A stretch of 64,000 nt of DNA from an uncultured Gemmatimonadaceae bacterium (GCA_963790305.1 CAWBOC010000001.1:96001-160000); one strand, 5' to 3'. Positions 12,265-32,331 are shown, counted from the stretch's first letter. Program-made: numbers and translations. Notes: a model not told the origin generated them from the sequence alone.

Positions 12265-12477
12265 GCCCGTGTGTGTGCTCTCCCTTTCCGTGGTCGTGAT
12301 GATGTGATCCCGACATAGGAGTGTCCGCGCAAAGGTTGTGGATGGAAGCAGCGACGTCATCAAGCCGGGCCGGCGGGCGCGTACCAGTCGCGTGGGGCAT
12401 CGGCAGGACACGCGCAATATGTTGTTAGGTCGGCCATGGGTAAAGATCGGAGCGCGCTCAACGGACCGGCCCCTTCC

Positions 12478-13432
12478 TCACAGTTTCACCTGGACTCCCG
12501 AAATCAGCGACCGCAGCGCGCGTTTGACGGGAGGCGGCATGCTGCTGTCGTACTGCTCCCTGAACGCAATCGAGAGCCCGAAGTTCGTCGTCATCATTCC
12601 AACAAGCCGCGCGTTGAATTCCGCTTGCCGGTATGGTGTGGTGGCACGCAGGCTCCAGAAGTAATGCATGTCCTGTTGGAAGCTGATCATGGGCGTCAGT
12701 TGCAGGGATAGGACATTGTGCACACCGGTAATTGGTCCCTCGACACCGGCCGGGACGTTCGCCGCAAATGAGAGCACTCGCCCGTACTCGGTCTGTTCAT
12801 TCTTTCCGTACCCAAGCCCCGGCGCGAGCAGCAGCGACACTCGGGCTGACTTCACGACGAAGTACCCCAGGCCAGCGATCGTCGTAGAACGGTACTTCAA
12901 GTATTGCACATGGTTGACCTCGAACTGGCTTCGACCCATCAACACCACGCGCGGCGTGAGCATCCGGCGCCCACCAAGCGTCAGCCCCCACTGATCCACG
13001 TCGGCGGAGTCTGGTTCCCGGCGCCAGTAACTCAAATTCCCGTCGAGCGTGAGCGCACCTCGCGCACCGCTCCGCGCAACTCCGAGGGTCATCTGTGCGC
13101 CCAGCGTCGAGCCCGCGATGCCGGGCGCAATCGTCGATATGTGCGTCATGGAGGCGGTCAGCTGTACCGGACCACGGGGAGGGAGGAGGAGGCGGCGGCG
13201 GTACGGGCGACCGCGATGCGACGGCGGCCGAATCGATCACCACCTCGCCCAGTCCATCCACGGAGATGTGAATCTTGCCGTCTCCGGCCGCCGTCACGCG
13301 TCCCACCAGGCTACTGCCGCCGACCAGCTGGATGACCTCCAGCGATGCGGGCGTGGGTGTCTGAGCCGCCACACGGTGGGTGGGGGCGCACACCAGCAGA
13401 ATGAAAGCGGGAAGAAGGTGCGATGGCCGCAT
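12478..13432 (-). CDS. DUF481-like putative outer-membrane beta-barrel protein (frameshift near 13160)
   Basis: Signal peptide, small beta domain, Pro-rich linker ending in WSG, then amphipathic beta strands ending YDSSMPPPVKR...SGVQVKL. Confidence 0.6.
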
Positions 13433-13434
13433 GG

Positions 13435-14784: not shown

Positions 14785-14980
14785 CGGACCTCTCTTGGAA
14801 GGGGACGCCGCGAGAACGTGCGACGCCGGTCTGCATACCTGGTAGAATTCCCCAAATGTGGCGCGGTATCAGCCAAGCCGGAACGATGCGCAAAGGGTAA
14901 AGACGGCCGCGTGCCAATACGGGTCCGGGAATGGATGCTTCTCAGGCGCAACGTCGGCGAAATCACTTGAGGAGGTACGC

Positions 14981-15394
14981 ATGGAATACGCGATCGGAAC
15001 CGTTGTCGCTCTGCTCACTGCCCTCTTCGCGAGACTGACGCGGTTCGACCAGGATCGTGCATTCTATCCGACGGTGCTCGTCGTGATCGCCTTGTATTAC
15101 ATCTTGTTCGCGGCCATGGGAGGATCGGCTCACGCGCTCCGACTGGAATCCATTCAACTCGCCATTTTCGCGGGTATCGCAGTCGTCGGATTCAGGTCGA
15201 GCCTGTGGTGGGTCGTTGCAGGTTTGGCCGGTCACGGAGTATTCGATCTCGCTCACGGGCATCTAGTACAGAATCCGGGTGTGCCCGCTTGGTGGCCAGG
15301 CTTCTGTTCGGCCGCCGATGTGTTCCTTGCAGCGAGCCTGGGGTGGCTTCTGTATCGCGGAGTCGTACTCGCACGAGCTGTTCGCCTCTCGTAG
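14981..15394 (+). CDS. Hypothetical membrane protein
   Basis: GAGGAGG RBS; hydrophobic; conserved-looking HGVFDLAH...VPAWWPGFC motif. Confidence 0.75.
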   Translation: MEYAIGTVVALLTALFARLTRFDQDRAFYPTVLVVIALYYILFAAMGGSAHALRLESIQLAIFAGIAVVGFRSSLWWVVAGLAGHGVFDLAHGHLVQNPGVPAWWPGFCSAADVFLAASLGWLLYRGVVLARAVRLS

Positions 15395-15541
15395 CTCGTT
15401 TCTCGCCGCGCCGAGGTCCGACGCTCGTGGATTTTGTTGTGGTCGACCGCTGTCGCGGCGCTGATTATGCGAAACGGGGATGACCATGGTTCACCAGCCC
15501 CTTCCTCGCCCTTTCATCCCCGCCGGGGATCCAGCAACGCT

Positions 15542-16861: not shown

Positions 16862-16964
16862 GTATCCGCCTGTCTATGTTGGACAGGTAGCCGGCCAAAG
16901 CCCGCCGCGTGCGTGCGACGTCCGTCGCATAAGCGCTTCGCGGTGAGCGAGATGGAGGTGGAGG

Positions 16965-17915
16965 ATGGAGAGACCGCGCGCATCCATCGCGATCGCCGCG
17001 ACGATCCTCAGTGTCCTGCTCGCGGGGGTGTTCCTCGCCGCCGGCGTTCCCAAGCTCATCGGCGCCGAGCCGCTGATTCTCCAGGCCGCCGCGATGCGCG
17101 GATTCCCCGAGTGGATCCGCATCGTCGTCGCGATCGTCGAGGTCATCGGGGCAATCGGGCTTCTCATTCCGGCGACGTCCGCCGTTTCCGCAACGCTGCT
17201 CGCCTTGCTGATGGTTCCGGCGGCGATCACGCAGCGGGTCAGCGGAGAGCCAGGCATTCTCGTCCCGGCTGCGCTCTTCATCCTGCTCCTCATCCTCGCG
17301 GCGCTTCGCCAACCCGATGCCTTGCGCAGGATCTGGCGCGAAGCGCGCCACGCACCACACCCGGTATTTCGCGAAGGTGTGATCGCGGGTGTCCTCGGTG
17401 CCACCGCGATCGCCGTGTGGTTCTTCATCGTCGATCTGGTCGCCGGCCAGACGCTGTTCACACCGACGACGCTTGGACGAGCGGTGTTCAGCGTGCTCGG
17501 GGCAGTGCCCGACAGCGAGAGCCCGATCATCCACGTGCTCGCGTACACCCTCTTTCACTACGCCGCGTTCATCACGCTCGGAATCGTCGCGGCGGCGATG
17601 GTGCGTCTCGCCGGTGACGAGCCGTCGGTGCTGCTCGGGTTCGTGATCCTGTTCGTCGCGTTCGAGGTGGGGTTCTACGCCTTCGTCGCGGTGCTGTCAC
17701 AGGTGAGCCCGCTCGGCGAGCTGGCCTGGTGGCAGGTGATGGTTGGGAACCTGATCGCGGCCGCGGCAATGGGGATCTATCTTGCTGCGGAAACACCCCG
17801 TGCTGCGAGAGCAGTTCAGGCACTCGATGGACGCGCAGCCGTGGAGGACGACGAGGCTGAGGTGATCGAGGTGCGTCGAGGGGTCGAGGTGATCAAGGTC
17901 AGACAGCAGCCTTGA
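16965..17915 (+). CDS. DoxX family membrane protein fused to a second multi-TM domain; 3' end probably frameshifted (stop near 17865)
   Basis: DoxX-like N-terminus (VFLAAGVPKL...GFPEWIRIVVAIVEVIGAIGLLIP) followed by 4 further TM helices. Confidence 0.75.
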   Translation: MERPRASIAIAATILSVLLAGVFLAAGVPKLIGAEPLILQAAAMRGFPEWIRIVVAIVEVIGAIGLLIPATSAVSATLLALLMVPAAITQRVSGEPGILVPAALFILLLILAALRQPDALRRIWREARHAPHPVFREGVIAGVLGATAIAVWFFIVDLVAGQTLFTPTTLGRAVFSVLGAVPDSESPIIHVLAYTLFHYAAFITLGIVAAAMVRLAGDEPSVLLGFVILFVAFEVGFYAFVAVLSQVSPLGELAWWQVMVGNLIAAAAMGIYLAAETPRAARAVQALDGRAAVEDDEAEVIEVRRGVEVIKVRQQP

Positions 17916-17949
17916 CTCCTCGATCATCCTCGACGCACCTCGACAACCT
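17859..17949. repeat. Palindromic element of 9-nt units (gaggtgatc / gatcatcctc) between convergent genes
   Basis: gaggtgatcgaggtgcgtcgaggggtcgaggtgatcaagg ... ccttgactcctcgatcatcctcgacgcacctcgacaacct. Confidence 0.75.
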
Positions 17950-18522
17950 GCTTCTCTCCAGCCTTTCCCGTACCACCGGCCACTCGCGATCCAGAATGCT
18001 GTACATGGCGGAGTCGCGAATTCGTCCCGACGCCGTGATCAGGTGTGCGCGCAGGATTCCCTCCTCCACCGCCCCGATCCTGAGAATCGCCGCGCGCGAC
18101 TGCTGATTGAGTGCATCCGTCTTGAGCTCGACGCGGATGCAGCCGAGCACGTCGAACGCGTGGCGGAGCATCAGATACTTCGCCTCGGTGTTGCACGCCG
18201 TGCGCTGACGGTCGCGGCGTAGCCAGGTCCACCCGATTTCCACACGGCGGTTCGACATATCGATGTTGCCGAACCGCGTGCTGCCAATGATCTCTCCGGT
18301 CGAGGCATCCAGCGTCGCGAACGGCAGCGCGGTGCCGGCGCGCTGCGCCTCGAGCGCCGCGTCGACGTAGACTCGCATGTCCTCCAACGACGCGATCTGC
18401 GTCAGCGTCCACCGCCACAGCTCCTGATCGGCGGCTGCCGCGAACATCGCCTCCGTGTGCGCGAGCGTGAGCGGCTCGAGCCGAACATGACGGCCCGACA
18501 GCGTGACGGGACTGACCTTCAC
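17899..18522 (-). CDS. GNAT N-acetyltransferase, RimJ/RimL-like
   Basis: VRLEPL, IIGSTRF, VEIGWTWL, NTEAKYLMLRHAF, RVELKTDALNQQSRAAILRIGA.EG.LR. Confidence 0.92.
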   Translation of the reverse strand: MKVSPVTLSGRHVRLEPLTLAHTEAMFAAAADQELWRWTLTQIASLEDMRVYVDAALEAQRAGTALPFATLDASTGEIIGSTRFGNIDMSNRRVEIGWTWLRRDRQRTACNTEAKYLMLRHAFDVLGCIRVELKTDALNQQSRAAILRIGAVEEGILRAHLITASGRIRDSAMYSILDREWPVVRERLERSRLSRCVEDDRGVKAAV

Positions 18523-18550
18523 GGAATGTTCGGGTGGGGGTGGGCAAGGA

Positions 18551-18643
18551 AGGTAGACCAGGGTGCCGACGCGCGATCGACACCCCTGGTCTACCTCTTG
18601 GTTCCTACGTCATCCCCGAAGCCCGACTACGTAGGTCGGCGGA
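18551..18643. promoter_or_regulatory. Inverted repeat and CTACGT motifs in the divergent region upstream of the biosynthetic operon
   Basis: aggtagaccagggtg...cacccctggtctacct (18551-18596); cctacgtc and near-palindrome ccgactacgtaggtcgg (about 18604-18639). Confidence 0.4.
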
Positions 18644-18700: not shown

Positions 18701-19668
18701 ATGACGTCGATCGGTGCGATCCGGTACGAGTTCCCCGCTGGAACGCGGTCTGTCCGCGAGCTGGCGGCGGCCGGTCTGCTCGAGTCGACCGCGGATACGC
18801 TCGAGTCGCTCGGCTTCGAGCAGGTGCGCGTTGCATGCGAGGAGTCGTCGTACTCCCTCGCCCTGCGCCGCGAGCAGCCGTCTCATCGAAGAATACGGCA
18901 TCGACCGCGACAGCATCGGGCTGCTGGTGTACGGCGGCGCGCCCGGGCGGGCTCGCGTTCTCCGCCGGCACGAACACTCGCCGGCGCGGCCGGCGACGTC
19001 GTCTCCGACCGCACGCTTCCGCTATCCCTCCACGCGACTTCAGTACGACCTCGGTCTCGAGCGCGCGGCGGTGCTCGCGGTCGACCAGCTCGCGTGCACC
19101 ACGCTCTTCGGCGCCGTGCGCGTCGCTCGCGCCCTTTGCATCGCCGAAGGAATCGAGCGCGCGCTCTGCGTCTCCGCCGACATGTACCCGCCACTCGCCG
19201 GTCGTGAGGCGCTCTTCAACTGCACCGCCGACGCCGGCTGCGCGGTGCTCGTCGAGCGCGAAAGTCGCCACGCAACCGCATCGTCGCCGCGCGCACCGTC
19301 ACCAAGGGCTACTACTGGGATGCCGACGCCATGCGCGACGAGATCGTCGCGTCGTACTTCCCGACCGCACGCCACGTCATCGCCGAAACGGTGCGCGATG
19401 CGGGATGGACGCTTGCCGACGTCGACTGGGTAATTCCGCATAACGTCAGCCGGCGCAGTTGGGAGATCCTGATGGGACTCGTCGGCGCTTCCCTCGCGCG
19501 CGCCTGTGGGCAGACAACATCGCGCGCGACGGACACACGCTCGCCGGCGACAACTTCATCAATCTGCACGATGCGCTGGCCTGCGGCGCGATCACCCCCG
19601 GCGACCGGTTGCTGCTCTTCTCGTACGGCTACGGCGCGCACTGGACCGCTCTCGCGGTGGAGGCCTGA
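18701..19668 (+). CDS. 3-oxoacyl-ACP synthase III (KAS III/FabH-fold) family protein (several frameshifts)
   Basis: Catalytic Cys in DQLACTT; DAGCAVLV; DVDWVIPHNVS; DGHTLAGDNFINL; PGDRLLLFSYGYGAHW. Confidence 0.85.
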
Positions 19669-19669
19669 C

Positions 19670-20772
19670 GTGAGCATCCCTCGCTCGATTCTGGTTACGG
19701 GCGCCACCGGGCCTCATCGGCCGCCGCGTGGTCGCCTCGCTTCTGCGCCGCACCAATGCGCCCAATCGTCGTTCTGGTCCGCGATCCGGCACGGTGGCAG
19801 GCGACGGCGACGCACCTCGGCGCAGGCGCCGCTCGAGTGACGGCCGTGCGCGCCGACATCACGCTTCCCGCCCTCGGGCTGGACCTGCGGACAATGACGC
19901 GCTGTCTCGGCGCGCCATTCCTGCTCGTCCACAGTGCCGGTGACATCGTCTTCTCGCGATCGCTGGCTGACTCGCGCCGCGTGAACGTCGAAGGCACCCG
20001 CAACGTCATCGAGCTCGCCTATTCATTCTCCGATGCACGGCTCGTTCACGTGAGTACGGCGTTCGCCGTTGGGCCGGCGCACCGGGTTCATCCCGCGAAG
20101 GCGCGGACGCTGCCGGTGAAGGCTGGGTGAACGCGTACGAGCAGTCGAAGCACGAGGCGGAGCGTGATCGTGCGCGAAAGCGGCCTCGAGTACGCGATCG
20201 CGCGGCCGAGCACGGTCGTCTGCGACGATGTCGCGCGGCGCGGTGACGCAGGTGAATGCCGTGCACCGCGCGCTGCGTCTCTATCACGCCGGGCTGGCGT
20301 CGATGATGCCGGGTTCGGAGGACACGCCGGTCGACGTCATCCCCGCCGACTGGGTGGCGGATGCCATCGCGCGTCTGTCGCTCGCCGCGACTGCGTCGGG
20401 CCGCACGGTACATCTCTGTGCCGGCGACGGCGCGCTTCCCCTCGGCGCGCTGCTCGATCGCACGTACGCGGTCTGGTCGCGGCGATACGAGCTGGCGGCG
20501 CCGAGCGTGGCCCGCCCGCCCTGTCCGAATCTTGGCACATACCAGCTGTTCGAGCGGTCCGTGGACCTCGTGGGTGACGCGCGGCTCAAGCGCATCACGC
20601 GGTCGCTGTCGCACTTCGTGCCGCAGCTCGCGCTCGCCGAAGCGGTTCGACACGTCGCTCTCGCGCGAGCTGCTCGGCGAGACTGCGCCGCCGGTGAGCG
20701 CGTATTGGGAGCGCATGCTCGAATGGCTTCTCGCTCTCGAACTGGAGCGCCGCGCTCCCGGAGGCTGCGTGA
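19670..20772 (+). CDS. Extended SDR of the thioester/fatty-acyl reductase (NAD_binding_4) type (frameshifted)
   Basis: ILVTGATG, VHSAGDIVF, VNVEGTRNV, VHVSTAF, NAYEQSKHEAE (YxxxK), IARPSTVV, VDVIPADWVA. Confidence 0.85.
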
Positions 20773-21034
20773 GCGCGCGGAGCTCGGTTCGCAGGGTGCC
20801 ATGGTCGCGTGGCTGAACACTCGGTTCGCGTCCAAGGGCTTCGTCATCACTGCCGACACGCCACTCTTCGCGCGCGGGGTGATCGACTCGCTCGGCATTC
20901 TCGAGCTCATCGCCTGGACGGAAGTGAACACCGGGCGGATCGTGCCCGACGAGAGCATTCGCATGGACAACTTCGGCACCGTCGCGCGCATCGCGCAGAC
21001 GTTCGTCGGGGAGGAAGCGCATGCGAACGGCTGA
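20769..21034 (+). CDS. Acyl/aminoacyl carrier protein
   Basis: ITADTPLFARGVIDSLGILELIAW...DNFGTVARIAQ, with phosphopantetheine Ser in DSL; GTGA overlap with the SDR. Confidence 0.9.
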
Positions 21035-21941
21035 AGGCGTCGTGTCCGCGCTCCGGGCTCGCGGCGAGCTCTGGGATGTCGCCCCCGGGGATCGTCGGCC
21101 TGCGAGGGCGACGCGCTGGCGTTGCTGCGCTCGCTCGAGCACGAAATCATGCCTCGCTCGCGCAACGGGAGACGTCCGAAGACTGGGCGGCGCCGCCGGC
21201 GCTCGCGATGCGCACGCTGGAGCACGCCGAGTATTTCGCGTCGTTCCCGTTCTGGCTCACCGCGGCGTCGCATCTGCCTGACGACGAGTCGCGCGCTGGA
21301 GCGTATTGCGACCGACGATCGAGCCGATGCTCGGCGGCGCGGAGCGCGGCGCGCTGCACCGACGTGGCCCTGCCCCCGGCGCTCTGCTATCACGTCTTCG
21401 AGCGGCTCGCCGGGCGGCGCCTGACGACGACGGAGCTCGTGACACTCGCCGGCACCTGCTGGCGTCATGAGGGGTCGAGACTGGCTGCACTCGAGCGCCA
21501 ATGGGCGTTCACAATGCGCGAGATCGTGTGCGTGGGAGTCTCGTCCGAAGAGTGGAGGACGTTTCGGCAGCGTGCGATGCGTCGCGCCGGCGCGCTGGCG
21601 TCGCGCCTCGATCTCGACGCCGGATTTCTCGTCGCAACCGATCCGTTCTTCGCGCCCACCGCGCGTGGGAAGGCAATCGTCCAGCGCGTGAAGGCGCTGA
21701 AGCATGAGCTCGCGCTTCCCATTGGCGATGAGCGAAGCACCGCGGCCGCGTCGTTCAACAATCACGAGCAGTTCTTTGGCGAGGCCTTCGGCATCACGCT
21801 CGTCGACGGGTGAGGCGGCCTCGAGCGGGTGTGTCGCGTTCGGACTGGAGCGGTGGCTCCTCGCGTTTCTCGTTGCCCACGGCGTGGATCGCGCTGCCTG
21901 GCCGGTACGTCGATGCGACGTACGCGGAGGCCGAATCATGA
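21021..21941 (+). CDS. Amino acid:[carrier protein] ligase, class II seryl-tRNA-synthetase paralogue (frameshifted)
   Basis: YFASFP, PALCYHVF, motif 2 CWRHEG...RQWAFTMREIVCVG, ATDPFF, KHEL, SFNNHEQFFG, motif 3 SGCVAFGLERW; no tRNA-binding arm. Confidence 0.85.
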
Positions 21942-22686
21942 GCACGTCCGCGCTCATTCGCCCGCACCTCTACGCGCGCTTCGCGTCCGCCGCCGAGCGC
22001 GGCGCGTGGTCCATCGACCGGGACATCGCCTGGCATGCCGTCGATCGCGACCGCGCGCTCGCTCAACCCGACATTCTGGTTGCGCTGCGCGACGCGGCCC
22101 TCATCGAGTCGTTCCACCCGGTCAATCTCGCGCGATTTCTCCGCGTGCTGTGGGACGACGTCGACGGGTGCGCCGCGGTTGGGACTCGAAATGTACGAGG
22201 GGTTCAAGCACTTCCATGCCCTTCGGATGTACCTCGACATCGTCCGGTTCGAGCCCGCGATCACCGACGAGGAGCTGGTCGATCTGCGCCGCGCTGCGTT
22301 GATCGTGATTTCGCACCGAGCGAGGTCATCGAGCACCTCGTCGAGTTCATGCTCAGCGAGCATCTCGCCGCGTACTTCTTTCGCCGGCTGAGCCGAGCGC
22401 GCGGAGGAGCCGGTGCTCGCCGATTTGCTGCGCTTCATCGCCGCCGACGAAGTGCGACACGCACAGAGCGCCTCCGACCTGATCGCAAAGCGAATCGCAC
22501 GGGAACCGGCGCTCACGGATCGCGTCCTCGACCGCGGCGGTCTGCTTCCATCACTACGGCGAGGAGGCGGTGGGCGAGGTCCCCGTCGCCATGCCCGGCG
22601 ATCCCATCGCCATCCGCACGTTCGCCGAGCGCATCGAGCGTCTCTGCGGGCGTCGTCTCGTCGATCATCTCAAGACCACGTTGTAA
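21938..22686 (+). CDS. Ferritin-like diiron protein, acyl-ACP desaturase/AurF-like (frameshifted)
   Basis: WSIDRDIAW, ALIES, EMYEGFKHFHAL, MLSEHLAAYFF, IAADEVRHA. Confidence 0.75.
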
Positions 22687-22700
22687 CCGGGAGCCGACAC

Positions 22701-23246
22701 ATGCTCGACACCACCCGCGAGCTGGACCTCCTCAACTTCTATCGCGCCTCGGAGCTGCACGGGGGCCTCATCCTCGGCCAGATCGCGCGGCGCGTGCGCG
22801 ACCCGCAACTCGTGCTCGCCCTTACCCGTCACGCGGCGGAGGAGGTCGTGCATGCGCAATGCTGGACGGAGACGATGATCGCGCTGGGCGGCGAATCCGC
22901 GCCCGGTGCGCGACACCTATCAAGCTCGGTACGCGCGCGCGCTTCGCGCCCCTGTATCGCTCTTTCACGTGCTGGCCCTCACCCAGGTCTTCGAGCGGCG
23001 CGTCTTCCGGCACTTCACGCTGCACTTCAGGCGTCCGGGGACGCATCCCGGCGATTTGCGCGACGCCTCAGACGCCTGCTCGATGAGGAGCGCGAGCACC
23101 TCTCCTGGGTGAAGACCTGGCTCGAGGAGCAGGAGAAGGTTCGTGGGCGCGAGCTCGTCGTGCGCACCATGCGGGAGTTCGCCGAAGCAGACGAGACCAT
23201 CTACGCGGAGCTGTGCGACGAGTACGGCTTCGCACGCGCGGCATGA
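22701..23246 (+). CDS. Second, small ferritin-like diiron protein (frameshifted)
   Basis: YRASELHG...HAAEEVVHAQCW...TQVFERRV...LLDEEREHLSWV; two ExxH motifs. Confidence 0.75.
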   Translation: MLDTTRELDLLNFYRASELHGGLILGQIARRVRDPQLVLALTRHAAEEVVHAQCWTETMIALGGESAPGARHLSSSVRARASRPCIALSRAGPHPGLRAARLPALHAALQASGDASRRFARRLRRLLDEEREHLSWVKTWLEEQEKVRGRELVVRTMREFAEADETIYAELCDEYGFARAA

Positions 23247-24433
23247 CCACCGCGACCATGGCAGTCGCCGTCTCGCGCGCGGAGCCCGACGTCGCGCGCC
23301 CGCTCGAGCGAGTACGCTCGCGGATGCGAGCGATGGCCCTCTCATGTTCGCCCAGGTCCGCGAGGATCCCTGCATCGAGATGCAGGCGCTCGCGCCCGCT
23401 TTGGGCGGTACGATCGTGGTCGTGAGCTCCGCCGGGTGTACCGCGCTGTCGTTGCTCGCCGCTGGTGCCCGTCACGTCGTCGGCGTGGACCTGTCACGCG
23501 CCCAAAACCATCTCGTCGAGCTCAAATGCGCGGCCATCCGTGCGCTCGCACGCCTGGACGCGATCGCATTCCTCGGCGGCTCAGCCCATGGCCGGCCTGT
23601 GCGCCGGCGTCGATTGTACGGCGTCCTCTCCCCCCTGCTCACCAACCACGCCCGCGCGTACTGGGACGCCAACCGCGATGCGATCGAGCGTGGCGCCTTG
23701 CGAGCGGGCAAAAGCGAACGGTTCATCTCGCTCGTTGCATCCGTCGTGGCACGGGCCGTCGTTCGCTCCGATGGCGTGGCGGCGTTGCTCAACGCTGACA
23801 GCGTTGAGGCACAACGGGACATCTTCGCGCACTCATGGGCTGGATGGCGGTGGCGCGCACTGTTCGCGGTGCTCCTCAATCGCTGGACGTTCTCGCGCGC
23901 CTATCACCCTTCGTTCTTCGATCACGTCGAGAACCCGAGCTTTGCGCGACACTTTCGGCGCCTCGCCGAGCGAACGCTCACTGAGATTCCCGCACGCGAC
24001 AACTACTTTCTCCACGAGATGCTCACGGGCCGGTACCCCATGCACGAGCCCTTGGGTGTGCCACCCTATCTCACAGCCGCGAGGTGTGGCGCGGGGCGCC
24101 GACGGCGCACGGACGCTGTCGCCTCGTCGACGGATCGCATGACCGAGTACCTCCGCTCCTGCCCGCCGCGGTCGATCAATGGTTTCGCCCTCTCCAACAT
24201 TGGCGAGTGGCTCGATCGAAAGCGGACTCGACGCGCTCTTCAGCGAAGTGGCTCGCACCGCCCGCCCCGGAGCGCGCGTCGTCTTCAGGAATTTCGTTGG
24301 GTGGACCGAGGTTCCAGAGCGGTGGCGCAAGGTCATCGTCGAGCGGCCAGGCTATGGCGAGCGCTTGATACGCCGGGACCGTAGCCTGGTGCAGCATCGC
24401 GCCGTCGTGTGCAATGTGTGGAGCGCGGCGTGA
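23243..24433 (+). CDS. BtaA/DUF3419 family SAM-dependent 3-amino-3-carboxypropyl transferase-like protein (frameshifted)
   Basis: MFAQVREDP.IEMQAL, VVSSAGCTALSLL, VDLSRAQNHLVELK.AAI, NYFL, PPYL, FALSNIGEWL, ARPGARVVFRNF. Confidence 0.8.
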
Positions 24434-25563
24434 GCGCGACCGCCGTCGTGCCCGCGACACGGCTCGTGAGGCTCGCGACCGAGAGCGACAACGCGGCGCT
24501 CATCGAGCTCGCGGCGTCGTGCCCCATGGAGGGCGACCTGTCGCTCCGCATCGATCGTGCGCCCGACTTCTTCGCGCTGAATCGTCTCGAGGGCGATCGG
24601 TGGAAGGTCGCGGTCGTCGACGGTCCACTCGGAGATCCCGTGGCGTGCGTCGCAACCGCCGAACGGCGCGTGTGGGTACACGGTCGCGCCAGAAACAATG
24701 GTCTACGCCGGCGACCTCAAGGTACACCCTGACTTTCGCGACACGCGCACCGCGGACGCGCTCGAGCGATTCGTCGCCGAGACGGCGCGCGAAGCGGGTG
24801 GAGATCTCACGCCCGTTGTCTTGACCGTCCTCGCCGGAAACGCGGCAATGGAGCGGCGCGCCGCTGGCCCTCGCGGACTTCCGCGACTTCATCGCTTTGC
24901 CACGCTGCACTCGTTTGCGATTCCGCTGCTGTGGCGGCGGGTTGTCGATGGCGCTCCCGATCTCCGAGTGCAGCGCGCGACGACGCGCGATCTGGAGGAA
25001 ATGGCGGATCTATGGGCGGCGATCGCCCCGACGCGTCAGTTCTCGCATGTTCTGGACGCCGACGCGCTCGCCCGTTGGATTGCCGCCGCGCCCGGGCTCG
25101 AGATCGACGACTACCTTCTCGCGCGCGACCTGCGCGGAAAGCTGCTGGGCTTCGTCGGCTATGGGATCAGCGCGCGCTCAAGACCCTTCGCGTGCTGCGC
25201 TACTCGCCCGACGCTGTCGATTCTTCGCGGTCTCGTGACGTCGTAGCGCCCCTCGTCGGCGCAGCCGCCCCGCCGGAGATCGGCGCGCCGCTCCACTACG
25301 CCAACGCCGTTCACCTCTGTGTTCCGGTGGACCGCGCGGACGTGCTGCGCACCCTCGTCCTCGGTGCCTACGACCGTCTGCGCGGCTCTGATCGCGTCTT
25401 CATGAACGTCGCCCTCGATGCGCGCGAGCCGATCGTCGCTGCCCTTCGCGGATTGCTCGCCACGCCGACCGCCATTCACGCGTACGCCACCATGCCGCGC
25501 GGTGCGTGGGAGGGTCCGGCGCTCGATGACCGCCCACTGCATTTCGAAACCGCACTCGTCTGA
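24430..25563 (+). CDS. Tandem-GNAT-fold acyltransferase (frameshifted)
   Basis: RLATESDNAAL..L...PMEGDLSLRIDRAPDFFA, YAGDLKVHPDFR, TVLAGNAAM; second GNAT-like repeat RATTRDLEEMADL. Confidence 0.75.
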
Positions 25564-25570
25564 GGCGCAC

Positions 25571-26574
25571 ATGACCGCGAAGATGACCAGACTGGGCTAT
25601 CAGAATGCGCTTCTATCGAGCGTTGCGTGCGGCGAACCGCCGCTACTCGCCAAAGCACGACATGGCGGCGCAGCCGTTTCCCGCCCTGATCCAGCTCCAG
25701 ACGATCAACGCCTGCAACGCGTCGTGCATCATGTGTCCCTATCCGCTGTACAAGAAGGAGTTCCCGCGCGGGACGGATGGAGGACGCGCTCTTCGAGAAG
25801 ATCATCGCCGAGATCGCGGAGCGGCCGGAGGTGCACACGTTCGTGCCAATGCTCCAGAACGAGCCCTTCCTCGACAGAAAGCTCTTCGACCGCATTGCGC
25901 GCTTCAAGCAGATCACGCACGGCCGCGTGGAGGTGGAGCTCGTCACGAACGGCGCGTTTCTTACCGCCGAAGCGATCGAACGCATTCGCGACGTCGAGCT
26001 CGACGTCCTCGACATCAGTCTGGACGCCGTCAGCAGGCAGACATATGAGCGCATCCGCATCGGGCTCGACTTCGACGAGGTCATCGCCGGCGTCGAGCGT
26101 GTGATCGATGCGCAGCTTCCGCATACCAGCGTGTTCGTGCGCCTGGTGAAGCTCCGCGACAACGCGCACGAGGTCCGCATGTTCGCGGCGCGGTGGCGGG
26201 CACGAGGGATTCCCGTCTTCGTGTACACCGCGAACAATCGCGTCGGCGCACTTCCCGAGTTCGACGACAAGCTCCGGCTCACGCGCGAGCAGGTACCGCC
26301 GCTCCACCGCATCGGACGCCGGGCGGCGCGCGCCTGGCTCGGCCACTGCCCCGCCCCATTCGCGACGACGGACATCCTTCACGACGGCAGCGTGCTCCTC
26401 TGCACGCACGATTGGGCGAGAAAGGAGATACTCGGCAACGTCCGCGACCAGACGATCGCCGAGATCTGGAATGGGGAGCGAATGCGCGAGATTCGTGCTG
26501 CCGTATATCGCCGCGAATACGACACCCTACCGGCCTGCCGCGGCTGTTCACTGTGGAAAGATGGCTGGGTTTGA
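25571..26574 (+). CDS. Radical SAM enzyme with SPASM/twitch domain (frameshifted near the N-terminus)
   Basis: CNASCIMC (CxxxCxxC), NEPFLD, LVTNGAFL, ISLDA; C-terminal CPAPF...DGSVLLC..D...LGNV...IWNG...CRGC. Confidence 0.9.
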
Positions 26575-28884
26575 GCGTCTCGCGGCCGGGGTCGTGCACC
26601 GGCGTTGGCTCGTGGTGGCCGCCTGGTTGCTCGCCGTCGGAGCGCTCCTTCCTTTCGCCCGGACGATCGAAGACCGCCTAACCGTTGCTGCGCGGGTAGC
26701 GGGAAGTGAGTCTGCGGCGGTCGAGGAGGCTCTCGCCTCGCGATTCGGGTCGCCTTTCGCGCGCTGGGTCGTGCTCGTGGTTGCCGGCGTTCCGGGGCCC
26801 GACACGCCCGACGGTCGCGTTCTGTTGGAAAGCGCTGTGCGCACGCTCAACGATCATCCGCACGTGACACGTACCTTTTCGTATCTCGATGACGCCGATT
26901 CGTTGTTCGTCGGCGCGGCGGGAAGCGGGACGTTTCTCGTCGTCGGATTGGACCGGGGGAACGCGCGCGCCGAGCGAATGCTGCCGGGGCTGCGCACGGC
27001 GTCCAACCAGCTGGAGCGCGAGATCCGACGCTCACATCCCGAGGCGACCGTCCGATGGACCGGGGAAATCGCCCTCAACGCCGACCTGCGCGCCGCGAGT
27101 GCCGCAGCGGCAGAAGGCGCTGAGCGGCGTGCCCTTCCGCTGACGCTGGCGGTGCTGCTCCTTGCCTTTGGTGCGCTGGCGGCGGCAATGGTGCCCCTGT
27201 TCGCGGCAGCGGTCGCGGTGGGAGTCACGTTAGGCCTCGCTGCGGTCGCGTCGGCATGGTGGCCGCTGTCGATCGTACTCCAGAACGTGGTGTCGATGCT
27301 TGGCATCGGGCTCGGCATCGACTACGCCCTGCTCATGGTCAGCCGCTTTCGTGCGGCGCGGGCCGGTGGTTCCTCCGTTCATCATGCGGCCGTGGTCTGT
27401 GGCACACGGGCCGGGCCCACGGTGGTGCTGTCGGCAGGAACGGTCGCGATCGGTTTTGCCGCGTTGCTTCTGGTCCCCCTGGATGAGATTCGCGCGATCG
27501 CCGTCGGCGGCGCTGCTCGTCACATCGATATCGGCGCTGGTCGCCGTAACGCTCGTTCCGGCCGCCCTCGCGATCTGGGGATCGCGGCTGGAGCTCGGGC
27601 GGGTGACGCGAGTCCGCGCGTCACGCGGCGAGGCGCGATGGGCGGGTTGGGCGCGCTTCGCGGTCACACGGCCGCGTGCCGTTCTCGCTGCCGGCGCACT
27701 TCCCATCTGCGCGCTGGCATGGCAGGCGACGCGACTCGACACGCATCTACCTCGCGGGGACTGGCTCCCGCGCGATATGGAGTCCGCTCGCGCCGTTCGC
27801 GATCTCCAGGCGATGGAGCGTGGCAACGTGGTGCAGAGCATTCGCATCGTGCTCGAGCTGCCAACAGGCGTGACGGTGCTCGACCACGCCGGCTGGCGAG
27901 CGATGTCGCGAATGACGGCGGCCCTTCTGCGCGAGCCGGAGGTTGCGCGCGTGCGCGCGCTTCCCATCATCGCGCCCGGCGCGCTTCCGGGGTCCATGCT
28001 GGAGTCGCTGCTGCCCACGGAGGTGAAAGCCACCTTCGTCTCGCGCGACGGCAGCTCGACGGTCCTCGAGGTCGTCCCCGCGAACGCCGCGTCGCCTAAC
28101 GCACTCGTCGACCTCGTCCTGCGGCTGCGCGAGTCGGGCGCGGCCGAGCTCAGCGGAGTGAAGGGTGCCCGAATGCTCGTGGGAGGCATTCCCGCCTTCA
28201 ACGCCGATTATCGTGCCGCGCTCACGGGCCGCTTCTCCATGCTGGCGGCGGTCGTGATCGTCGCGACCCTGATCGTGCTCGAGCGTCGCCCTGCGCTCGA
28301 TTCTGATCCCGCTCAAGGCCGTGCTGCTCAATCTCCTGTCGGTAGGCGCGGCATTCGGCGCAATGGTGCTGGTGTTCGGCGATGGCGTGGGCATTCAGCT
28401 CCTCGGCCATGATTCTCCGCCGGGCGGTACGTTCCCGATGATCCCGGTGCTCGTCTTCTGCATCGTCTTCGGTCTCAGCATGGACTACGAGCTCTTTCTC
28501 GTCTCGCGCATCATGGAGGCCCGACGCTCCGGCGCGAGCGATACCGACGCCATCGTCGAAGGCGTGTCGCGCACCGGTGGCGTCATCACCAGCGCGGCCG
28601 CCATCATGATCGTCGTGTTTGGCGCCTTCACGCTCGGCGACGTGCTGCTCATACAAATGCTCGGCTTTGCGCTCGCCGTCGCGGTGCTCATCGATGCGAC
28701 CGTCGTTCGCATGGCGATTGGACCGGCGCTCTTGCAGCTCGCCGGACGATGGAACTGGTGGCCAGGCTGTGACAGGCCCTTGGGGCCCAAACGGCTAGCT
28801 CGCCCGCCGCGCCTCGCGGTCGTTCATACGCGCTTCTTCCCGTGGGTGGCGAGCGCTCTCGGTCACCGGCGCCCGGAGCGGTAA
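26561..28884 (+). CDS. MMPL/RND family transporter (2 or more frameshifts)
   Basis: [59 protein letters not shown]. Confidence 0.9.
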
Positions 28885-31800
28885 CGTCACCGTGAACCGG
28901 GTGCCTTCGCCGGGCGTACTCTCCAGAGCGAGGTCGCCCCCGAGTAACCGCGCGAGCCGGCGAGCGACGCTGAGTCCGAGGCCGGTACCCCCAACCTGAC
29001 GAGTCGCCGACTGCTGCACTTGCCAGAATGCCTCGAACACCTTGTCGGCGTTCTCCTTCGAGATGCCGATGCCGGTGTCCTCGACGACCACGACAATGCC
29101 GCCGTCGCGCTCCGCGAGCGTCAGCGTCGACGTGTCCGCGCTCGGTGAACTTCACCGCGTTCGAGAGCAAATTGAGGAGAATCTGGCGCACTTTGCCGGC
29201 GTCGGTTTCCATCGCAATCGCATGGTTCGGCACGCGCGTGACGAAGTCGAGCCCCTTCTCCCGCGCCATGGGCTCGATGAGCACGATGGTATCGCGGACG
29301 AGCGCGACCGCATCCGCCGGAGCCCGGACGACCGCCTCGCGACCCGCTTCCATTCGGGAGAAGGTGAGAATCTCCTCGACGATCTCGAGCAAGTGGCGAG
29401 ACGCGGTCCGGATCCGCTGCACGTGACCATTCGTCTGCGACGGAATGGCCGTCGGCACGCCCATGAGCAGCAGCTCGGCGTATCCGATGATCGCGTTCAA
29501 CGGCGTGCGCAGCTCGTGCGACATGACGGCGAGGAAGTCGCTCTTGGCACGGCTGGCAATGAGCGCCGTCTCGTACAGACGGGCGTTGTCCACCGCCATC
29601 GCCGCGCGCCGCGCAATCTCCTGAGCGAGCGCGAGCTCCTCATCGCCGTACCGCCGTCTCGACTCGGCGCTGACGAGAGTGAGGACGCCGAGCATGCGAT
29701 CGCGTCCTTCGATGGGAACGGAGACGTACGAAACCGGTGTGATTCCCTCCATGGTGCTCGCGCGGTGATCATCGGGCGCTTCGAGATCGTGCCTCTGCGG
29801 TGATACGACCGGGACGAGCTCCGCGTCCCCGGTGCGTGCCACGTGTCCAGGCCCCGACGGCGCGTCGAGCGATATCGGATTGCGAGTGCTGAGCTGCCTG
29901 ACGCGCTCCGCCTTGGCGCGGTCGGCGTGCGCCACCGCCACGCGGTGCAATGTGTCCGGATTGGATTCGTCGATGACGTCGACGACACACCAGTCGGCCA
30001 GCGTCGGTACCACCAGCCGCGTAAGCTCCGTGAGCGCCTGGTCGCCATCGAGCGTCGAGGCCAGCACGCGGCTCGCCTCCATGAGAAACCGCTGCATCTC
30101 CTCGGCGCGCTTGCGGTCGGAGATGTCGCGCCAGTATCCGGTGAAGCAGGGCGCTCCCGCGGCGGGCACGCGCGTAATCGTCAGCTCGACGGGAAACTCG
30201 GTTCCGTCCGATCGGAGGCCACGAAGCTCGATGCGTCGGCCAAGGAATCGGGTTTCGCCGGTCTCGAGGTGCGCGTGCAGCGCCGCGCGGAAGACCTCCC
30301 GAGGCGACGGCGGAAGGATCAGCTCCCCCATTTCCCTTCCCACGGCCTGCGACGGCGGCCACCCAAAGGTTCGCTCGGCGGCCGGGTTCCAGTCGGTAAT
30401 GCGTCCCGACGCGTCGAAAGAGATGACGCAGTCGATCGCACTGTCAATGACGGCGCGCGTGCGCGCCTCGCTCTCGCGCACCGCGAGCTCCGCCCGGCGG
30501 CGCTCGAGGAACTGACCGGCCTGACTGCCGATGCTCTGCGCCATTTGCAGCAGCTCGTCGTCCGGGTACCGGATCTCGGTACTGAAGAATTCCATCACGC
30601 CCACGACGCGTCCGGCATCGATGAGCGGGAACGACAGCGCGGCATGCAGGTCACGGTCCGCGAATAGCGCGGCGCGGGTGAATCCCGTCTCGCGCGCGAT
30701 GTCGGGAATCCAGAGCGGCGCGGCCGCGGCCCAGGTTTGCCCGGGAATGCCGACCCCGCACTCGAACGCGATGGCGCGATTCGCCTCCGCGAACGCTTCG
30801 TCGTGCTCGTGGTCGAAATGAATGTCCGCGCACCGCAGGACCTGTCGCTGCGCATCGAGCGCCCAGTGGAGCCCCACGTCCCAGCCAAGACTATCGCAGA
30901 TGCCGCGCAATATGCGCGGCGCCGCTTCGGACATGCCGCTCGATTCGGCGAGCGTCTGCGTGACGACGAACTGGGCCGCGAGCCGGCGTTCCGCTCGCTT
31001 GCGCATCCCAATGTCGATGAGCACTCCCCGCAGCTGACACGGATGACCGTGTTCGTCGCGCGCTCCATAGACCATCTCGCGCATCCACGTCACGCGACCA
31101 TCCGCGCTCAGCAGGCGATACTCGCTCTCACTGTGATCGCACGATTCGGCGACGTCGGCGAGGTGCTCGCGCACGTGCTCCCGATCGTCGGGGTGCACGA
31201 TCCGCTCGACGTACGCCCCGGGCTCGAGCCAGACGTCGGCGGGCCATCCCAGCATCGATTCGGCTCGGCGATTCACGAACGTGAAATCCTGGGTGCGTGC
31301 GTCGGCTTCCCAGACGATGGCATCAATGCCTTCGACCAGATCGCGATAGCGGTGCTGCGCATCGACCGCGGCCGTCCGCGCGCCGCGCTCGGCATCCAGC
31401 AGCCGGGCCTGGGCGATCGCCGTCGCCACACGGTCGGCGACGAGCTGTAGGAGACGAATGTCATCCTCGGTGAAGTGCCGAGACGCGTCCGTGCCGATCT
31501 CGAGAACGCCTAACACACGCCCTTCGACGAGCAAGGGTGCCGCCGCCAACGAGCTGAACCGTCGGAGTGCTTGACGCACGCCAGGCATCGCCGCGACATC
31601 ATCGACCGCGGCGGCCTCGCGGCTGAGCGCAACCTGGCCCGAGAGTCCCTCGCCCACCGACATCCGCACGTGCTTCGTTACCTCCTCCTCGAGGCCATTG
31701 GAGGCACATGCCACGAGCGTCTTGCCCGTCCTCCGCAATTTCGAGCACCGTCGCGTAGTCCGCTGCCAGGTGCTTGCGAATGCGCGAGAGGAGCTCGCGC

Positions 31801-32228
31801 AGCAGTGCGTCGAAGGAGAGCGTCGCGAGCGCCGGATCGGTGACGGCTCGGAGGGCGCGGATGCGCGCAGTCGCCGCGTCGGCACGATCGCTGGCGTCCC
31901 ACCACTCGCGGCGCAGCCACGCGGCTCGACGATGCGTCACGGCCCCCGCCATCATCGCCACCAGCAATGCCCCGAGCTCAGCGACGACCGTTAGGCGATC
32001 GTTGGCGGCATACTGAAGCACCGAGCCGGGAACGCTGCGCGCGAGCACGACCCACGCGCCCACCACCAGCCCGCCAAGCAACCCCACGCGGAGGCCACCG
32101 AGCGCGGACGCGAGCGCGAGAATCGCGATGAGCCCCGCCGAGGTCGCGGGGAGCTCCATGCCGCGCATGCGCAACCAGGCGGCGAGTGTGACCGCCGTCA
32201 CCACGAGCCCGAGAGCCGCCGCACGCAC
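28795..32228 (-). CDS. Membrane-bound multi-sensor histidine kinase, TM-GAF-PAS-GAF-PAS-GAF-HisKA-HATPase (frameshifted)
   Basis: H-box [19 protein letters not shown]-box [15 protein letters not shown] boxes DTGIGI and [11 protein letters not shown] motifs IVHPDDRE and [10 protein letters not shown]. Confidence 0.9.
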
Positions 32229-32331
32229 ACTCAGCCGCGTTGCCGGCGTTGCGATGACGGGAGCGTCGGAGAAAGAGTCCTGCGTACGCTCCTCCTGGAG
32301 AGAGGTCCGGTTTTGGCCGCGCTAGGCGCGC

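Follow-up and report, generated by a model that had tools for sequence, protein, structure and literature searches.

A conserved ten-gene operon in Gemmatimonadaceae, probably for making and exporting an amino-acid-derived lipid

Gene content and layout of the operon

The window (the whole stretch of 64,000 nucleotides that was analysed) belongs to a MAG of a soil-dwelling, diderm member of the Gemmatimonadaceae and not to an actinobacterium. Its + strand carries, at 18701-28884, ten same-strand open reading frames (A, B, CP, C, D, D2, E, F, G, and H), which almost certainly make up a real, conserved operon. All of the junctions listed in a preliminary description of this DNA are present in the sequence. 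Four are 4-nt start/stop overlaps: GTGA at 20769 (B/CP), ATGA at 21938 (C/D) and at 23243 (D2/E), and GTGA at 24430 (E/F). CP/C and G/H overlap by 14 nt, the latter through the ATG of H at 26561 and the stop of G at 26572-26574, and the other junctions are short gaps, including that between the TGA of A, which ends at 19668, and the GTG of B at 19670. Family assignments were checked on intact orthologues (e.g., L003), and the earlier calls of an aminoacyl-carrier pair, a KAS III homologue, an NAD_binding_4 reductase, two diiron proteins, and BtaA-like, GNAT, radical SAM, and MMPL proteins all hold. As had also been stated, there is no megasynthase, neither NRPS nor PKS, within the operon; likewise, profile searches of the orthologue proteins found no malonyl transferase, ketoreductase, or dehydratase within it, and BtaB is missing from it as well.

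Gene A (18701-19668, starting with ATG at 18701) encodes a KAS III-like thiolase-fold enzyme and is frameshifted in the window copy, which requires three frame switches. Its orthologue (L003:1419-2552) scores 61.8 bits against Pfam ACP_syn_III_C (cut-off 26.6) and has FabH as its best PDB match (2ebd, E 1.1e-11), while its scores on FabH models fall under the curated cut-offs. Cys143 and His288 are invariant across the nine orthologues aligned; His257 is replaced by Gln in the Acidimicrobiia copy, the other eight being from Gemmatimonadota. The position at which FabH has Asn is, by our reading, His in A, and this substitution, together with Gln257 in the Acidimicrobiia copy, makes the assignment of any one reaction type to A tentative. 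Gene B (19670-20772), a stand-alone thioester reductase of the NAD_binding_4 SDR type (139.1 bits), resembles the thioester-reductase domain model TIGR01746 (118.4 bits, under the cut-off of 213; E 4e-34) and the R region of MxcG (E 3.5e-22). Its orthologue starts directly after the stop of A and carries the Rossmann motif TGATGLIG; the window copy requires five to six frame switches.

CP (20769-21034) is a stand-alone carrier protein of 87 aa that has a DSL phosphopantetheine site; its gene lies in seemingly "intergenic" DNA and was recognised through the conservation of that DNA across 11 sequences. A PF00550 profile scan of the genome gave no match on the contig carrying the operon. The translation contains GVIDSLGILELIAW, and PP-binding scores are 21.0 bits in L003 and 32.4 bits in L024 (cut-off 20.8), with the window copy under the cut-off at 19.4; in the PDB, type II PCPs come closest, with 2my5 (E 1e-4) ahead of PltL, PigG, and DltC. 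Gene C (21021-21941) encodes a SerRS-like amino acid:[carrier protein] ligase, which scores 186.6 bits against NF005479 (under the equivalog cut-off of 357) and matches the Bll0957 aa:CP ligase in the PDB (3mey, E 4.3e-40); C121, C145-W-R-H-E149, C268, and R275 are invariant in all eight orthologues.

The diiron proteins follow. D (21938-22686) is ferritin-like and acyl-ACP-desaturase-like, with M. tuberculosis DesA2 as its best PDB match (1za0, E 1.6e-8) and weak Pfam matches to FA_desaturase_2, MiaE_2, and Rubrerythrin, each under the cut-off. D2 (22701-23246) is a small ferritin-like protein of 180 aa that has no sequence match in Pfam, NCBIfam, or the PDB; its translation contains two E...ExxH-type motifs, its dN/dS is 0.02, and its Atlas neighbours are ferritin/rubrerythrin/AurF-like clusters. 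In one cluster of 297-aa Gemmatimonadota proteins (TM 0.93), the D2 fold is fused to PP-binding. This fusion and the likeness of D to acyl-ACP desaturase suggest carrier-based chemistry, and a PPTase gene directly upstream of A in the related genome G020 was counted as support for the same chemistry.

Gene E (23243-24433) encodes a DUF3419/BtaA-like SAM-dependent transferase (PF11899, cut-off 28.2: 199.7 bits for the L003 protein, 178.7 for the window ORF). Its 1032 homologues are named in the sources as BtaA family, DUF3419, or SAM-diacylglycerol 3-amino-3-carboxypropyl transferase, and a PDB sequence search found no relative with a solved structure. F (24430-25563) is a tandem (double) GNAT N-acyltransferase, and Acetyltransf_1/_9 are present in its relatives. 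A PDB sequence search gave no match to it, and its identity to structural neighbours is 9-16%; its AF2 model (pLDDT 91.7) is nearest in predicted fold to N-myristoyltransferase (NMT) and tandem GNATs. The top 50 Foldseek matches are all N-myristoyltransferases (best E ~1e-13, TM 0.60-0.63), and VIA-align Z scores are 24.1 for the tandem GNAT MAB_4324, 23.1 for NMT, ~19 for Eis, 18 for MshD, and 14 for FemX. G (25571-26574) is a radical SAM/SPASM enzyme (Radical_SAM 66.2 bits, SPASM 56.8 bits) whose orthologue carries CNASCIMC. The last gene, H (26561-28884, ending in TAA at 28882-28884), encodes an MMPL/RND-type transporter (PF03176, 236.4 bits in L003, with matches in three frames in the window copy) that resembles MmpL3 (244 bits) and HpnN (54.6 bits) in NCBIfam, both below threshold. 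Upstream of the cluster in G020 there is also a phosphoesterase-family gene (PF04185).

Frame breaks in the window copy

The reading frames of the window copy are broken, as the preliminary description implied: tblastn with the proteins of the relative G004 requires ~20 frame switches over the ten genes. These are very probably insertion-type assembly errors. The alternative, a decaying pseudogene cluster with real frameshifts, in which the pathway would be dead in this strain and alive in relatives, is improbable, although this many switches in 10 kb is far denser than in the flanks (one to two per flanking gene). The projected 3,402 codons contain no in-frame stop, and dN/dS does not set the window copy (0.022-0.213) apart from the intact G005 (0.024-0.191); with values of 0.02-0.21 among intact orthologues, the operon is under purifying selection. 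Against G004, the window shows 55 insertion and 12 deletion events (11 and 15 for G005), an excess opposite to the deletion bias seen in bacterial gene decay. The inserted bases behave as random single bases: 18 of the 52 extra bases are the same as their neighbour (background 0.35), with no link to homopolymers, and 47 are concentrated in a 6-kb patch (18.9-24.7 kb). Conserved neighbours, a histidine kinase among them, are frameshifted too.

Sequencing reads bear on both sides of this question. Among the 12 read-level indels listed, 11 fall within 2 nt of indels found in the window only, and short-read contigs lack one window base at 10 of these 12 sites; these contigs are 90-99% alike to the window and may come from other strains. 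In favour of decay, the extra base of the window is kept by some contigs at 24122 (sequencing runs X1 and X3) and 24137 (run X3), and the best sequencing run holds only 0.12 of words, which means that the strain itself was not resequenced. Apart from these two positions, read support for the frameshifts, which had been named as a sign of decay, was not borne out.

Conservation, distribution, and modularity

Synteny in other genomes, proposed earlier as a test of the locus, was found: the same gene order occurs at 78-83% nucleotide identity in five of eight same-genus genomes, with partial matches at ~65-76% in two other genera. All 11 Gemmatimonadota loci whose contig spans A to F are colinear over that range; they come from MAGs of the Gemmatimonadaceae, Gemmatimonadales, and Longimicrobiales, with protein identities of 46-68%. 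The arrangement is thus not due to chance, and its order is kept in relatives. The earlier notion of a single ten-gene unit stands as far as this colinearity goes and fails in two respects, as four of the 13 Gemmatimonadota loci (L021, L023, L026, and L028) have no G between F and H, which makes this gene optional, and modules of the operon also occur apart.

The operon is a mosaic of such modules and not one indivisible unit. A-B-CP-C-D-D2 is present without E, F, and H in G069, and in G083, G302, and further genomes F and H have a GH3 adenylating enzyme as a neighbour, together with a Rieske oxygenase. A smaller cassette of GNAT, diiron protein, reductase, and DUF3419 occurs in Acidobacteriota and Bacteroidota (L029, L030; Acidobacteriaceae and Chitinophagaceae), where an AAR-like and an ADO-like gene lie between those for F and E. 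In this sister cassette, the reductase is acyl-ACP-reductase-like (TIGR04058, E 7e-60 and 1.6e-42) and the diiron protein is aldehyde-deformylating-oxygenase-like (TIGR04059, E 1.7e-13), all under the equivalog cut-offs; its gene content indicates that this type of GNAT and DUF3419 recur in company with a diiron enzyme and a reductase for fatty thioesters.

Because modules are also found apart, the enzymes of the operon need not act on one molecule. E could be an ordinary BtaA that makes diacylglyceryl-homoserine from diacylglycerol under phosphate limitation, with the front end belonging to a separate pathway. The separate front end in G069, the phosphoesterase-family gene upstream of the G020 cluster, and the annotation of E as BtaA in the sources would fit such a split, which we nonetheless regard as very improbable: E shares 4-nt start/stop overlaps with D2 and F, the A-to-F order is unbroken in 11 of 11 loci across family- and order-level divergence, BtaB was not found nearby, and E has F and a diiron protein as partners even at loci that lack any other lipid gene.

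A predicted pathway and its relation to known systems

An exported lipid derived from an amino acid is the probable product of the pathway, each of whose steps is assigned from family membership. C would load a small amino acid onto the dedicated CP, with Gly or Ala likeliest, a preference that we assume from the precedent of Bll0957 and Atu2573. D and D2 may oxidise or desaturate the carrier-tethered intermediate, and A, via its conserved Cys, may attach a fatty acyl chain to the amino acid on the carrier, by N-acyl transfer or, alternatively, by a Claisen-type extension. B would then release the product as an aldehyde or alcohol, such that C, CP, and B may act like a split NRPS A-T-R module. 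E is predicted to take the 3-amino-3-carboxypropyl group from SAM and place it on the newly formed hydroxyl or amine, and the N-myristoyltransferase-like F to add a second acyl chain, probably a long one, to a free amine; G, where present, may tailor the product, and the H pump would expel it from the inner membrane. The amino lipid expected from these steps would lack phosphorus and have two tails and an amino-alcohol or homoserine-ether head. This exact order of steps is doubtful, while an exported amino lipid as product class is slightly favoured, a reading that the fold of F, the MmpL3/HpnN likeness of H, and the sister cassette with its acyl-ACP-reductase-like protein suggest.

The role of A could differ from that given above. 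If A were a priming ketosynthase, it would use malonyl-ACP to extend the aminoacyl-carrier thioester by condensation, FAS would lengthen the result to a long omega-amino or amino-hydroxy acyl chain, B would reduce this chain, and E and F would decorate it. The outcome, a lipid of sphingoid-like or bola type that needs no serine palmitoyltransferase, corresponds to the model of the preliminary description; none of the findings points to a ceramide-like product in particular. Such a role would suit the retained nucleophilic Cys and the Cys-His-His-like set found in eight Gemmatimonadota among the nine aligned orthologues (which presumably corresponds to the KAS I/II residue roles), the sister-cassette reductase, of a type acting on FAS products, and the desaturase-like D. 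We consider it unlikely, as Gln at position 257 of the Acidimicrobiia orthologue is unexpected for a decarboxylating condensing enzyme, the B and CP genes overlap, C-CP-B reads as a split A-T-R module on the CP thioester, and the operon is without malonyl transferase, ketoreductase, and dehydratase.

The class of product is also subject to a competing view. Scoring of four candidates per genome, which may miss some copies, found gene F in 12 of the 401 Gemmatimonadota genomes sampled and in 9 of 147 genera, and an operon as rare and patchy as this is easier to reconcile with a specialised metabolite than with a lipid of the core membrane. A small secreted compound might be an antibiotic derived from an amino-aldehyde or amino-alcohol, a signal, or an opine-like metallophore with an aminocarboxypropyl group; the MMPL protein would then be an exporter of general use, and F would transfer acetyl-type groups or serve in self-resistance. 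The modular make-up, with alternative front ends such as GH3 and Rieske, agrees with this, as do the closest tandem GNATs, which include the acetyltransferases Eis and MshD and the clavulanate tandem GNAT (Z 18-20). Such a product is possible but less probable than a lipid, given the uniform N-myristoyltransferase matches of F, the desaturase likeness of D, and a sister-cassette reductase of a kind typical of fatty chains. To our knowledge, the MMPL proteins characterised so far are lipid carriers. Taken together, an operon intact in relatives, artefactual breaks in this copy, and an exported amino lipid form the best explanation overall, to which we give a probability of roughly 0.55.

The pathway is so far undescribed: a full-text literature search found no description of the ten-gene combination, in keeping with the earlier claim that no known cluster has it. 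Individual parts do have counterparts. BtaA and BtaB form the pathway to the betaine lipid DGTS in Rhodobacter and rhizobia, with BTA1 in algae, and BtaA is, as far as we know, the only characterised member of the DUF3419 family. E is a full-length DUF3419 protein like BtaA, but it is encoded without the BtaB methyltransferase, overlaps diiron-protein and tandem-GNAT genes by shared codons, and may act on an acceptor other than diacylglycerol. The cyanobacterial AAR/ADO pair is paralleled, through the AAR-like and ADO-like genes of the sister cassette, by B and D/D2, with D/D2 resembling the ADO-like protein at the level of metal motifs only; an alkane product makes no sense beside a SAM transferase and a GNAT. 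F consists of two GNAT halves over its whole length, as do N-myristoyltransferase and the tandem GNATs MAB_4324, Eis, and MshD, which it resembles in fold at the low identity given above.

C-CP-B has the same predicted logic as the A-T-R release modules of NRPS (the mycobacterial isonitrile lipopeptide NRPS and the R domain of myxochelin MxcG), namely amino acid activation, a carrier thioester, and NAD(P)H-dependent release. Unlike in NRPS, activation would be by a class II aaRS homologue instead of an adenylation domain, each of the three functions has a protein of its own, and where NRPS have a condensation domain there is a KAS III-like enzyme. The closest counterparts of C and CP are the aa:CP ligase/carrier protein pairs of Bradyrhizobium and Agrobacterium (Bll0957; 3mey, 4h2s-4h2y), reportedly described by Mocibob and colleagues in 2010; we know of no established physiological role for these proteobacterial pairs. 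Like these ligases, C is without the tRNA-binding part (~304 aa, compared with 520-aa SerRS chains), and like Bll0957 it retains the aligned Cys/Glu/Cys and arginine positions and has a small DSL carrier protein as its neighbour, here in an overlapping gene. In contrast to the proteobacterial pairs, C and CP share an operon with KAS III-like and thioester reductase genes, with the genes for both diiron proteins, and with those for a BtaA-like transferase, a GNAT, and an MMPL transporter.

Operon organization, host and conservation

The operon comprises ten plus-strand genes at 18,701-28,884, in a window of ~65% G+C, and its junctions match exactly those listed in the preliminary description. 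On this strand, the TGA that ends the KAS III-like gene A (19666-19668) is followed by the GTG of the thioester reductase gene B at 19670; GTGA junctions occur at 20769 and 24430, ATGA junctions at 21938 and 23243, an ATG at 26561 overlaps the TGA at 26572-26574, and a TAA at 28882-28884 ends the operon. The remaining genes encode a carrier protein (CP), a SerRS-like aminoacyl:carrier-protein (aa:CP) ligase (C), two diiron proteins (D and D2), a DUF3419/BtaA-like protein (E), a tandem GNAT (F), an optional radical SAM/SPASM protein (G) and an MMPL transporter (H). A minus-strand GNAT gene (Acetyltransf_3, 17902-18609) and a DoxX gene upstream, and histidine kinase and LuxR genes downstream, were left out of the operon because they are conserved within the genus only. 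Rfam recovered no RNA family, at E values up to 0.1, in the 59,558 bases of four orthologous loci.

An actinobacterial host, suggested by the MMPL protein and the high GC content, was ruled out by the presence of Gemmatimonadaceae, Gemmatimonadales and Longimicrobiales MAGs among the related records. These lineages, along with the Omp85 and type VI secretion genes found in the flanks of one relative, identify the host as a diderm member of the Gemmatimonadota. In that relative, a member of the Gemmatimonadales (L011, G020:C10, 4931-8356; also L012), a 4'-phosphopantetheinyl transferase (PPTase) gene lies directly upstream of A, with an Omp85-family gene and a gene for a PF04185 phosphoesterase (phospholipase C/acid phosphatase family) before it, and the type VI secretion genes occur ~10 kb downstream.

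When 40 related genomes were searched at the DNA level, five of eight same-genus genomes (G002, G004, G005, G007, and G008) matched over the entire 10 kb at 78-83% identity, and G017 and G020, from two other genera, matched over parts of it at ~65-76%; the remaining matches were short and fell mostly at the MMPL end. Every operon gene is a single open frame in the relatives carrying the stretch. When the proteins of an intact orthologous locus (L003) were compared by tblastn with 16 loci holding a relative of F, the order A-B-(CP)-C-D-D2-E-F was present in all 11 Gemmatimonadota loci with a sufficiently long contig, so the synteny whose absence elsewhere would have counted against the preliminary description is conserved; in two further Gemmatimonadota loci the contig starts only within the operon. 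H comes next in all 11 loci that extend to it, and G is present in nine and missing in four. Phylum-wide profile searches found F in 12 of 401 sampled Gemmatimonadota genomes (9 of 147 genera) and the C family in 27 of 401, counts in which negatives are soft, as four to six first-look candidates were scored per genome. Co-occurrence of F and C was dropped as a statistic, both for this reason and because the C matches include paralogs of 31-36% identity located elsewhere.

Separately from the operon, ~10 kb of the window (5480-15450), starting right after a tRNA-Asn gene (5370-5444), is replaced by ~4.3 kb of unrelated sequence in the congener G004. The ORFs of this region mostly lack a Pfam family (only DUF190 and DUF481 were matched), AT skew rises to 0.25 at 8-10 kb, and the region is probably a strain-specific island.

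Broken reading frames in the window copy

In the window copy, Pfam matches to KAS III, NAD_binding_4, ferritin-like, DUF3419, and radical SAM plus SPASM domains occur only as fragments in changing frames, and MMPL is matched in three frames. Across the operon, the frame indicated by GC3 changes at intervals of a few hundred bases, and ~20 frame switches are apparent against protein queries from G004. In a six-way DNA alignment, 52 bases are unique to the window, and few deletions are. Projection of the window copy on the codons of G004 gave 55 insertions and 12 deletions, compared with 11 and 15 in the intact G005, and none of the 3,402 projected codons is an in-frame stop. Per-gene dN/dS ranges from 0.022 to 0.213 in the window copy and from 0.024 to 0.191 in G005, with similar values in G007 and G008. 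The lack of stops and the ortholog-like dN/dS indicate that selection has acted on the correct frame of the sequence between breaks; a decayed locus, which the preliminary description had weighed against its own proposal, is thus not borne out.

The extra bases are single, of ordinary composition, and show no tie to homopolymers (18 of 52 equal a neighbor, against a background of 0.35); 47 of the 52 are located at 18.9-24.7 kb. We also compared this stretch with short-read soil contigs from three studies; the best run contains 0.12 of the words, so that this check informs on the covered parts. Among the 12 read-level indels listed (with 34 further), 11 lie no more than 2 nt from an indel unique to the window, and 10 consist of one base left out. 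The contigs retain the window's extra base at 24122 (runs X1 and X3) and 24137 (X3), and, being 90-99% alike, may derive from other strains; for these reasons and the low word content of the runs, their support for an artifactual origin of the breaks is weak. Considering the alignment, codon and read comparisons together, the breaks are very probably assembly errors of the insertion type, in a patch of poor polishing, and a few clustered insertion triplets may be real in-frame differences. Since the broken frames are read as an assembly artifact, the intact loci L015 and L016 are the proper template for experiments.

Frame switches (one to two each against G004) also occur in conserved genes outside the operon, including those for DoxX and a GAF/PAS histidine kinase (16947-17850, 28798-32312, 35517-36186, 36275-37421, and 47654-48731), which suggests indel errors throughout this assembly at lower density. 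In the genome as a whole, 19 of 855 5-kb bins have less than 0.35 coverage by long high-GC3 ORFs; such patches, at C5:375-400 kb, C9:695-720 kb, C6:135 kb, and C13:230 kb, may be badly polished regions, rRNA or foreign DNA.

Predicted functions of the operon proteins

Gene identities were determined on the intact orthologous loci L003/L015, and the family assignments of the preliminary description stand after profile, PDB and fold comparisons. Protein A matches the C-terminal KAS III domain (ACP_syn_III_C, 61.8 bits against a cut-off of 26.6), with the N-terminal domain at 22.0 bits, under its cut-off of 24, and has 29 FabH-type matches in the PDB (FabH match E 1.1e-11). Compared with the positions we take to be the FabH catalytic triad (Cys-His-Asn), Cys143 is invariant, His257 occurs in eight of nine orthologs (Gln in L020, a locus from an Acidimicrobiia MAG), and an invariant His288 (in a GHT motif) occupies the Asn position. 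Because of this His and the non-universal His257, A is classed as KAS III-like rather than as FabH. B, which begins immediately after the stop of A, is a stand-alone thioester reductase with an NAD_binding_4 match of 139.1 bits (profile positions 1-258) and the Rossmann motif TGATGLIG; TIGR01746 scores 118.4 bits, under its cut-off of 213.

CP, an 87-aa ORF with a DSL motif, overlaps both neighboring genes and occupies the B-C spacer, the DNA of which is conserved in 11 sequences. A genome scan with PF00550 gave five matches, none of them on this contig. Of four relatives scanned, three reach the PP-binding cut-off of 20.8 (21.0, 21.1, and 32.4 bits), and CP of L022 (17.7 bits) and of the window copy (19.4 bits) score under it; in the PDB, the closest chains belong to type II peptidyl, prolyl and D-alanyl carrier proteins. 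C (21021-21941, plus strand, ~306 codons) matches the aa:CP ligase Bll0957 (3mey) at E 4.3e-40, versus 2.4e-12 and 1.3e-09 for type-2 SerRS, and its best NCBIfam model, NF005479, scores 186.6 bits, under a cut-off of 357. It consists of the catalytic core only, lacking a tRNA-binding domain, and aligns to residues 314-504 of a 527-aa SerRS chain. Residues C121, E149, and C268, invariant in eight of eight orthologs, align with the Cys, Glu, and Cys that are presumably zinc ligands in Bll0957 and methanogen SerRS. These features identify C as a putative aa:CP ligase with an adjacent, dedicated carrier protein, for which ATP-dependent aminoacylation is predicted.

Of the two diiron proteins, D matches the acyl-ACP-desaturase homolog DesA2 (E 1.6e-8), and D2 is a 180-aa ferritin-like protein for which the family searches returned no match. 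The Atlas structural neighbors of D2 include a cluster in which its fold is fused to a PP-binding domain, a lead for D2 acting on carrier-bound substrates. E is a full-length DUF3419 protein, with a PF11899 match of 199.7 bits (cut-off 28.2) that spans profile positions 10-345 of 385; it has 1032 homologs automatically named BtaA-type and no significant match in the PDB (best E 0.23). Profile searches of the ten operon genes and their flanks found no BtaB-type N-methyltransferase. As a BtaA-family protein, E is a predicted 3-amino-3-carboxypropyl transferase, with an acceptor that we do not assign to diacylglycerol.

The AF2 model of F (pLDDT 91.7) contains two GNAT halves in one chain. Its best 50 Foldseek matches are all N-myristoyltransferases (NMT), and VIA-align Z scores were 24.1 for the tandem GNAT MAB_4324 and 23.1 for NMT, over ~300 aligned residues, ~19 for Eis, and 14 for FemX. 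F of L003 has no Pfam match, and Acetyltransf_1 is above cut-off in the relatives of F from L029 and L030, sister cassettes in Acidobacteriaceae and Chitinophagaceae. The G ortholog carries the cluster motif CNASCIMC (CxxxCxxC type), with Radical_SAM (66.2 bits) and SPASM (56.8 bits) both above cut-off. H is a protein of ~770 aa with two MMPL domains (PF03176, 236.4 bits over two stretches), and the MmpL3- and HpnN-specific models score far under their cut-offs.

Modularity and a proposed lipid pathway

Twelve places from the phylum-wide searches were fetched for neighborhood comparison. In the G069 genome (L033, G069:C3, 7627-12826), the front end A-B-CP-C-D-D2 is followed by a gene for an ICMT-like membrane methyltransferase, and E, F, and H are absent within 20 kb of it. 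In G083, G254, G302, and G212, F adjoins H and none of A to E is present; among the three genomes in which the neighbors of F were scanned, a GH3-type adenylating enzyme occurs in all (G083, G302, and G301), a Rieske oxygenase in G083 only, and a radical SAM protein in G302 and G301. In the Acidimicrobiia locus (L020, 2155-11092), which belongs to another phylum, the gene set is rearranged over two strands: E and F share one strand, and the other encodes an acyl-AMP/CoA ligase, A, an AurF-like diiron protein, C, B, and D2. Sister cassettes in Acidobacteriaceae and Chitinophagaceae have the order F, an aldehyde-deformylating-oxygenase (ADO)-like diiron protein, an acyl-ACP-reductase-like protein, and E. 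Because these modules occur apart in other loci, the operon is a mosaic that combines a carrier-based front end with the pair E and F and an exporter, G being optional.

Several further arrangements were observed. The AurF-like diiron protein of L020 stands in the place of D, and the C gene of this locus was matched in two pieces; orthology of D or D2 to this protein, or to the ADO-like protein of the sister cassettes, was not supported, as pairwise BLAST gave motif-level matches only. A second cluster type (L034, 5903-12621; L036, 4504-12642; L038, 8897-13657) combines the F-type tandem GNAT (42-47% identity) with an MMPL protein, without A to E; the genes found alongside encode a GH3-family adenylating enzyme, an unknown ~300-aa protein, a Rieske oxygenase, and a radical SAM/SPASM protein. 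Paralogous SerRS-like aa:CP ligases (31-36% identity) occur in different surroundings within Gemmatimonadota, at L041 (8605-10406), L042 (8437-10588), L043, and L044; one lies behind an ORF with hexapeptide-transferase repeats and a PP-binding domain, and another behind an acyl-CoA dehydrogenase gene.

The chemistry proposed in the preliminary description is a reasonable model, resting on inference from the gene families. In the likeliest scheme, C, CP, and B would form a split A-T-R unit for the activation of an amino acid, its tethering as a thioester and its reductive release; such a carrier-based route fits with the PPTase gene that immediately precedes A in G020. A could use its conserved Cys to link the tethered amino acid to a fatty acyl group, with N-acyl transfer the preferred role and Claisen priming of fatty acid synthesis the alternative. 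D and D2 may oxidize or desaturate carrier-bound intermediates, E may transfer the aminocarboxypropyl group from SAM to the hydroxyl or amine so freed, F may add an acyl chain to an amine, and H would export the product. The combination of a thioester reductase, a diiron enzyme, a DUF3419 protein, and an F-type GNAT recurs in two unrelated architectures, and this recurrence is the best support for the four acting on one fatty substrate.

The product could be a new class of phosphorus-free envelope lipid, in which a CP-bound amino acid is acylated, released as an amino alcohol, joined to homoserine through an ether bond by E, N-acylated by F, and delivered to the outer membrane by the MMPL protein; we hold this reading tentatively, at roughly one chance in four. 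If true, it would be the first physiological role for SerRS-like aa:CP ligases, and the first role other than DGTS synthesis for the DUF3419 family.

To our knowledge, little or no physiology has been described for SerRS-like aa:CP ligases, for DUF3419 proteins other than BtaA, or for the F-type tandem-GNAT family, and the lipids and natural products of Gemmatimonadota are almost unexplored. The operon joins these three families of unknown function, tightly coupled and conserved, with a reductase and an exporter, which turns three separate problems of function into one testable pathway. It suggests a possible route in Gemmatimonadota to amino-alcohol-type lipids or metabolites that would need neither an NRPS nor a PLP-dependent condensation. 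The preliminary description knew of no characterized cluster with this combination, and in keeping with this, no description of the A-to-H combination was found in the accessible portions of the full-text literature, including PMC7923214, PMC11253843, and PMC12930378. Known systems each resemble the operon only in part: Bll0957-type aa:CP ligase pairs, BtaA/BtaB, the reductive-release modules of NRPS, the AAR/ADO system, and NMT-type tandem GNATs.
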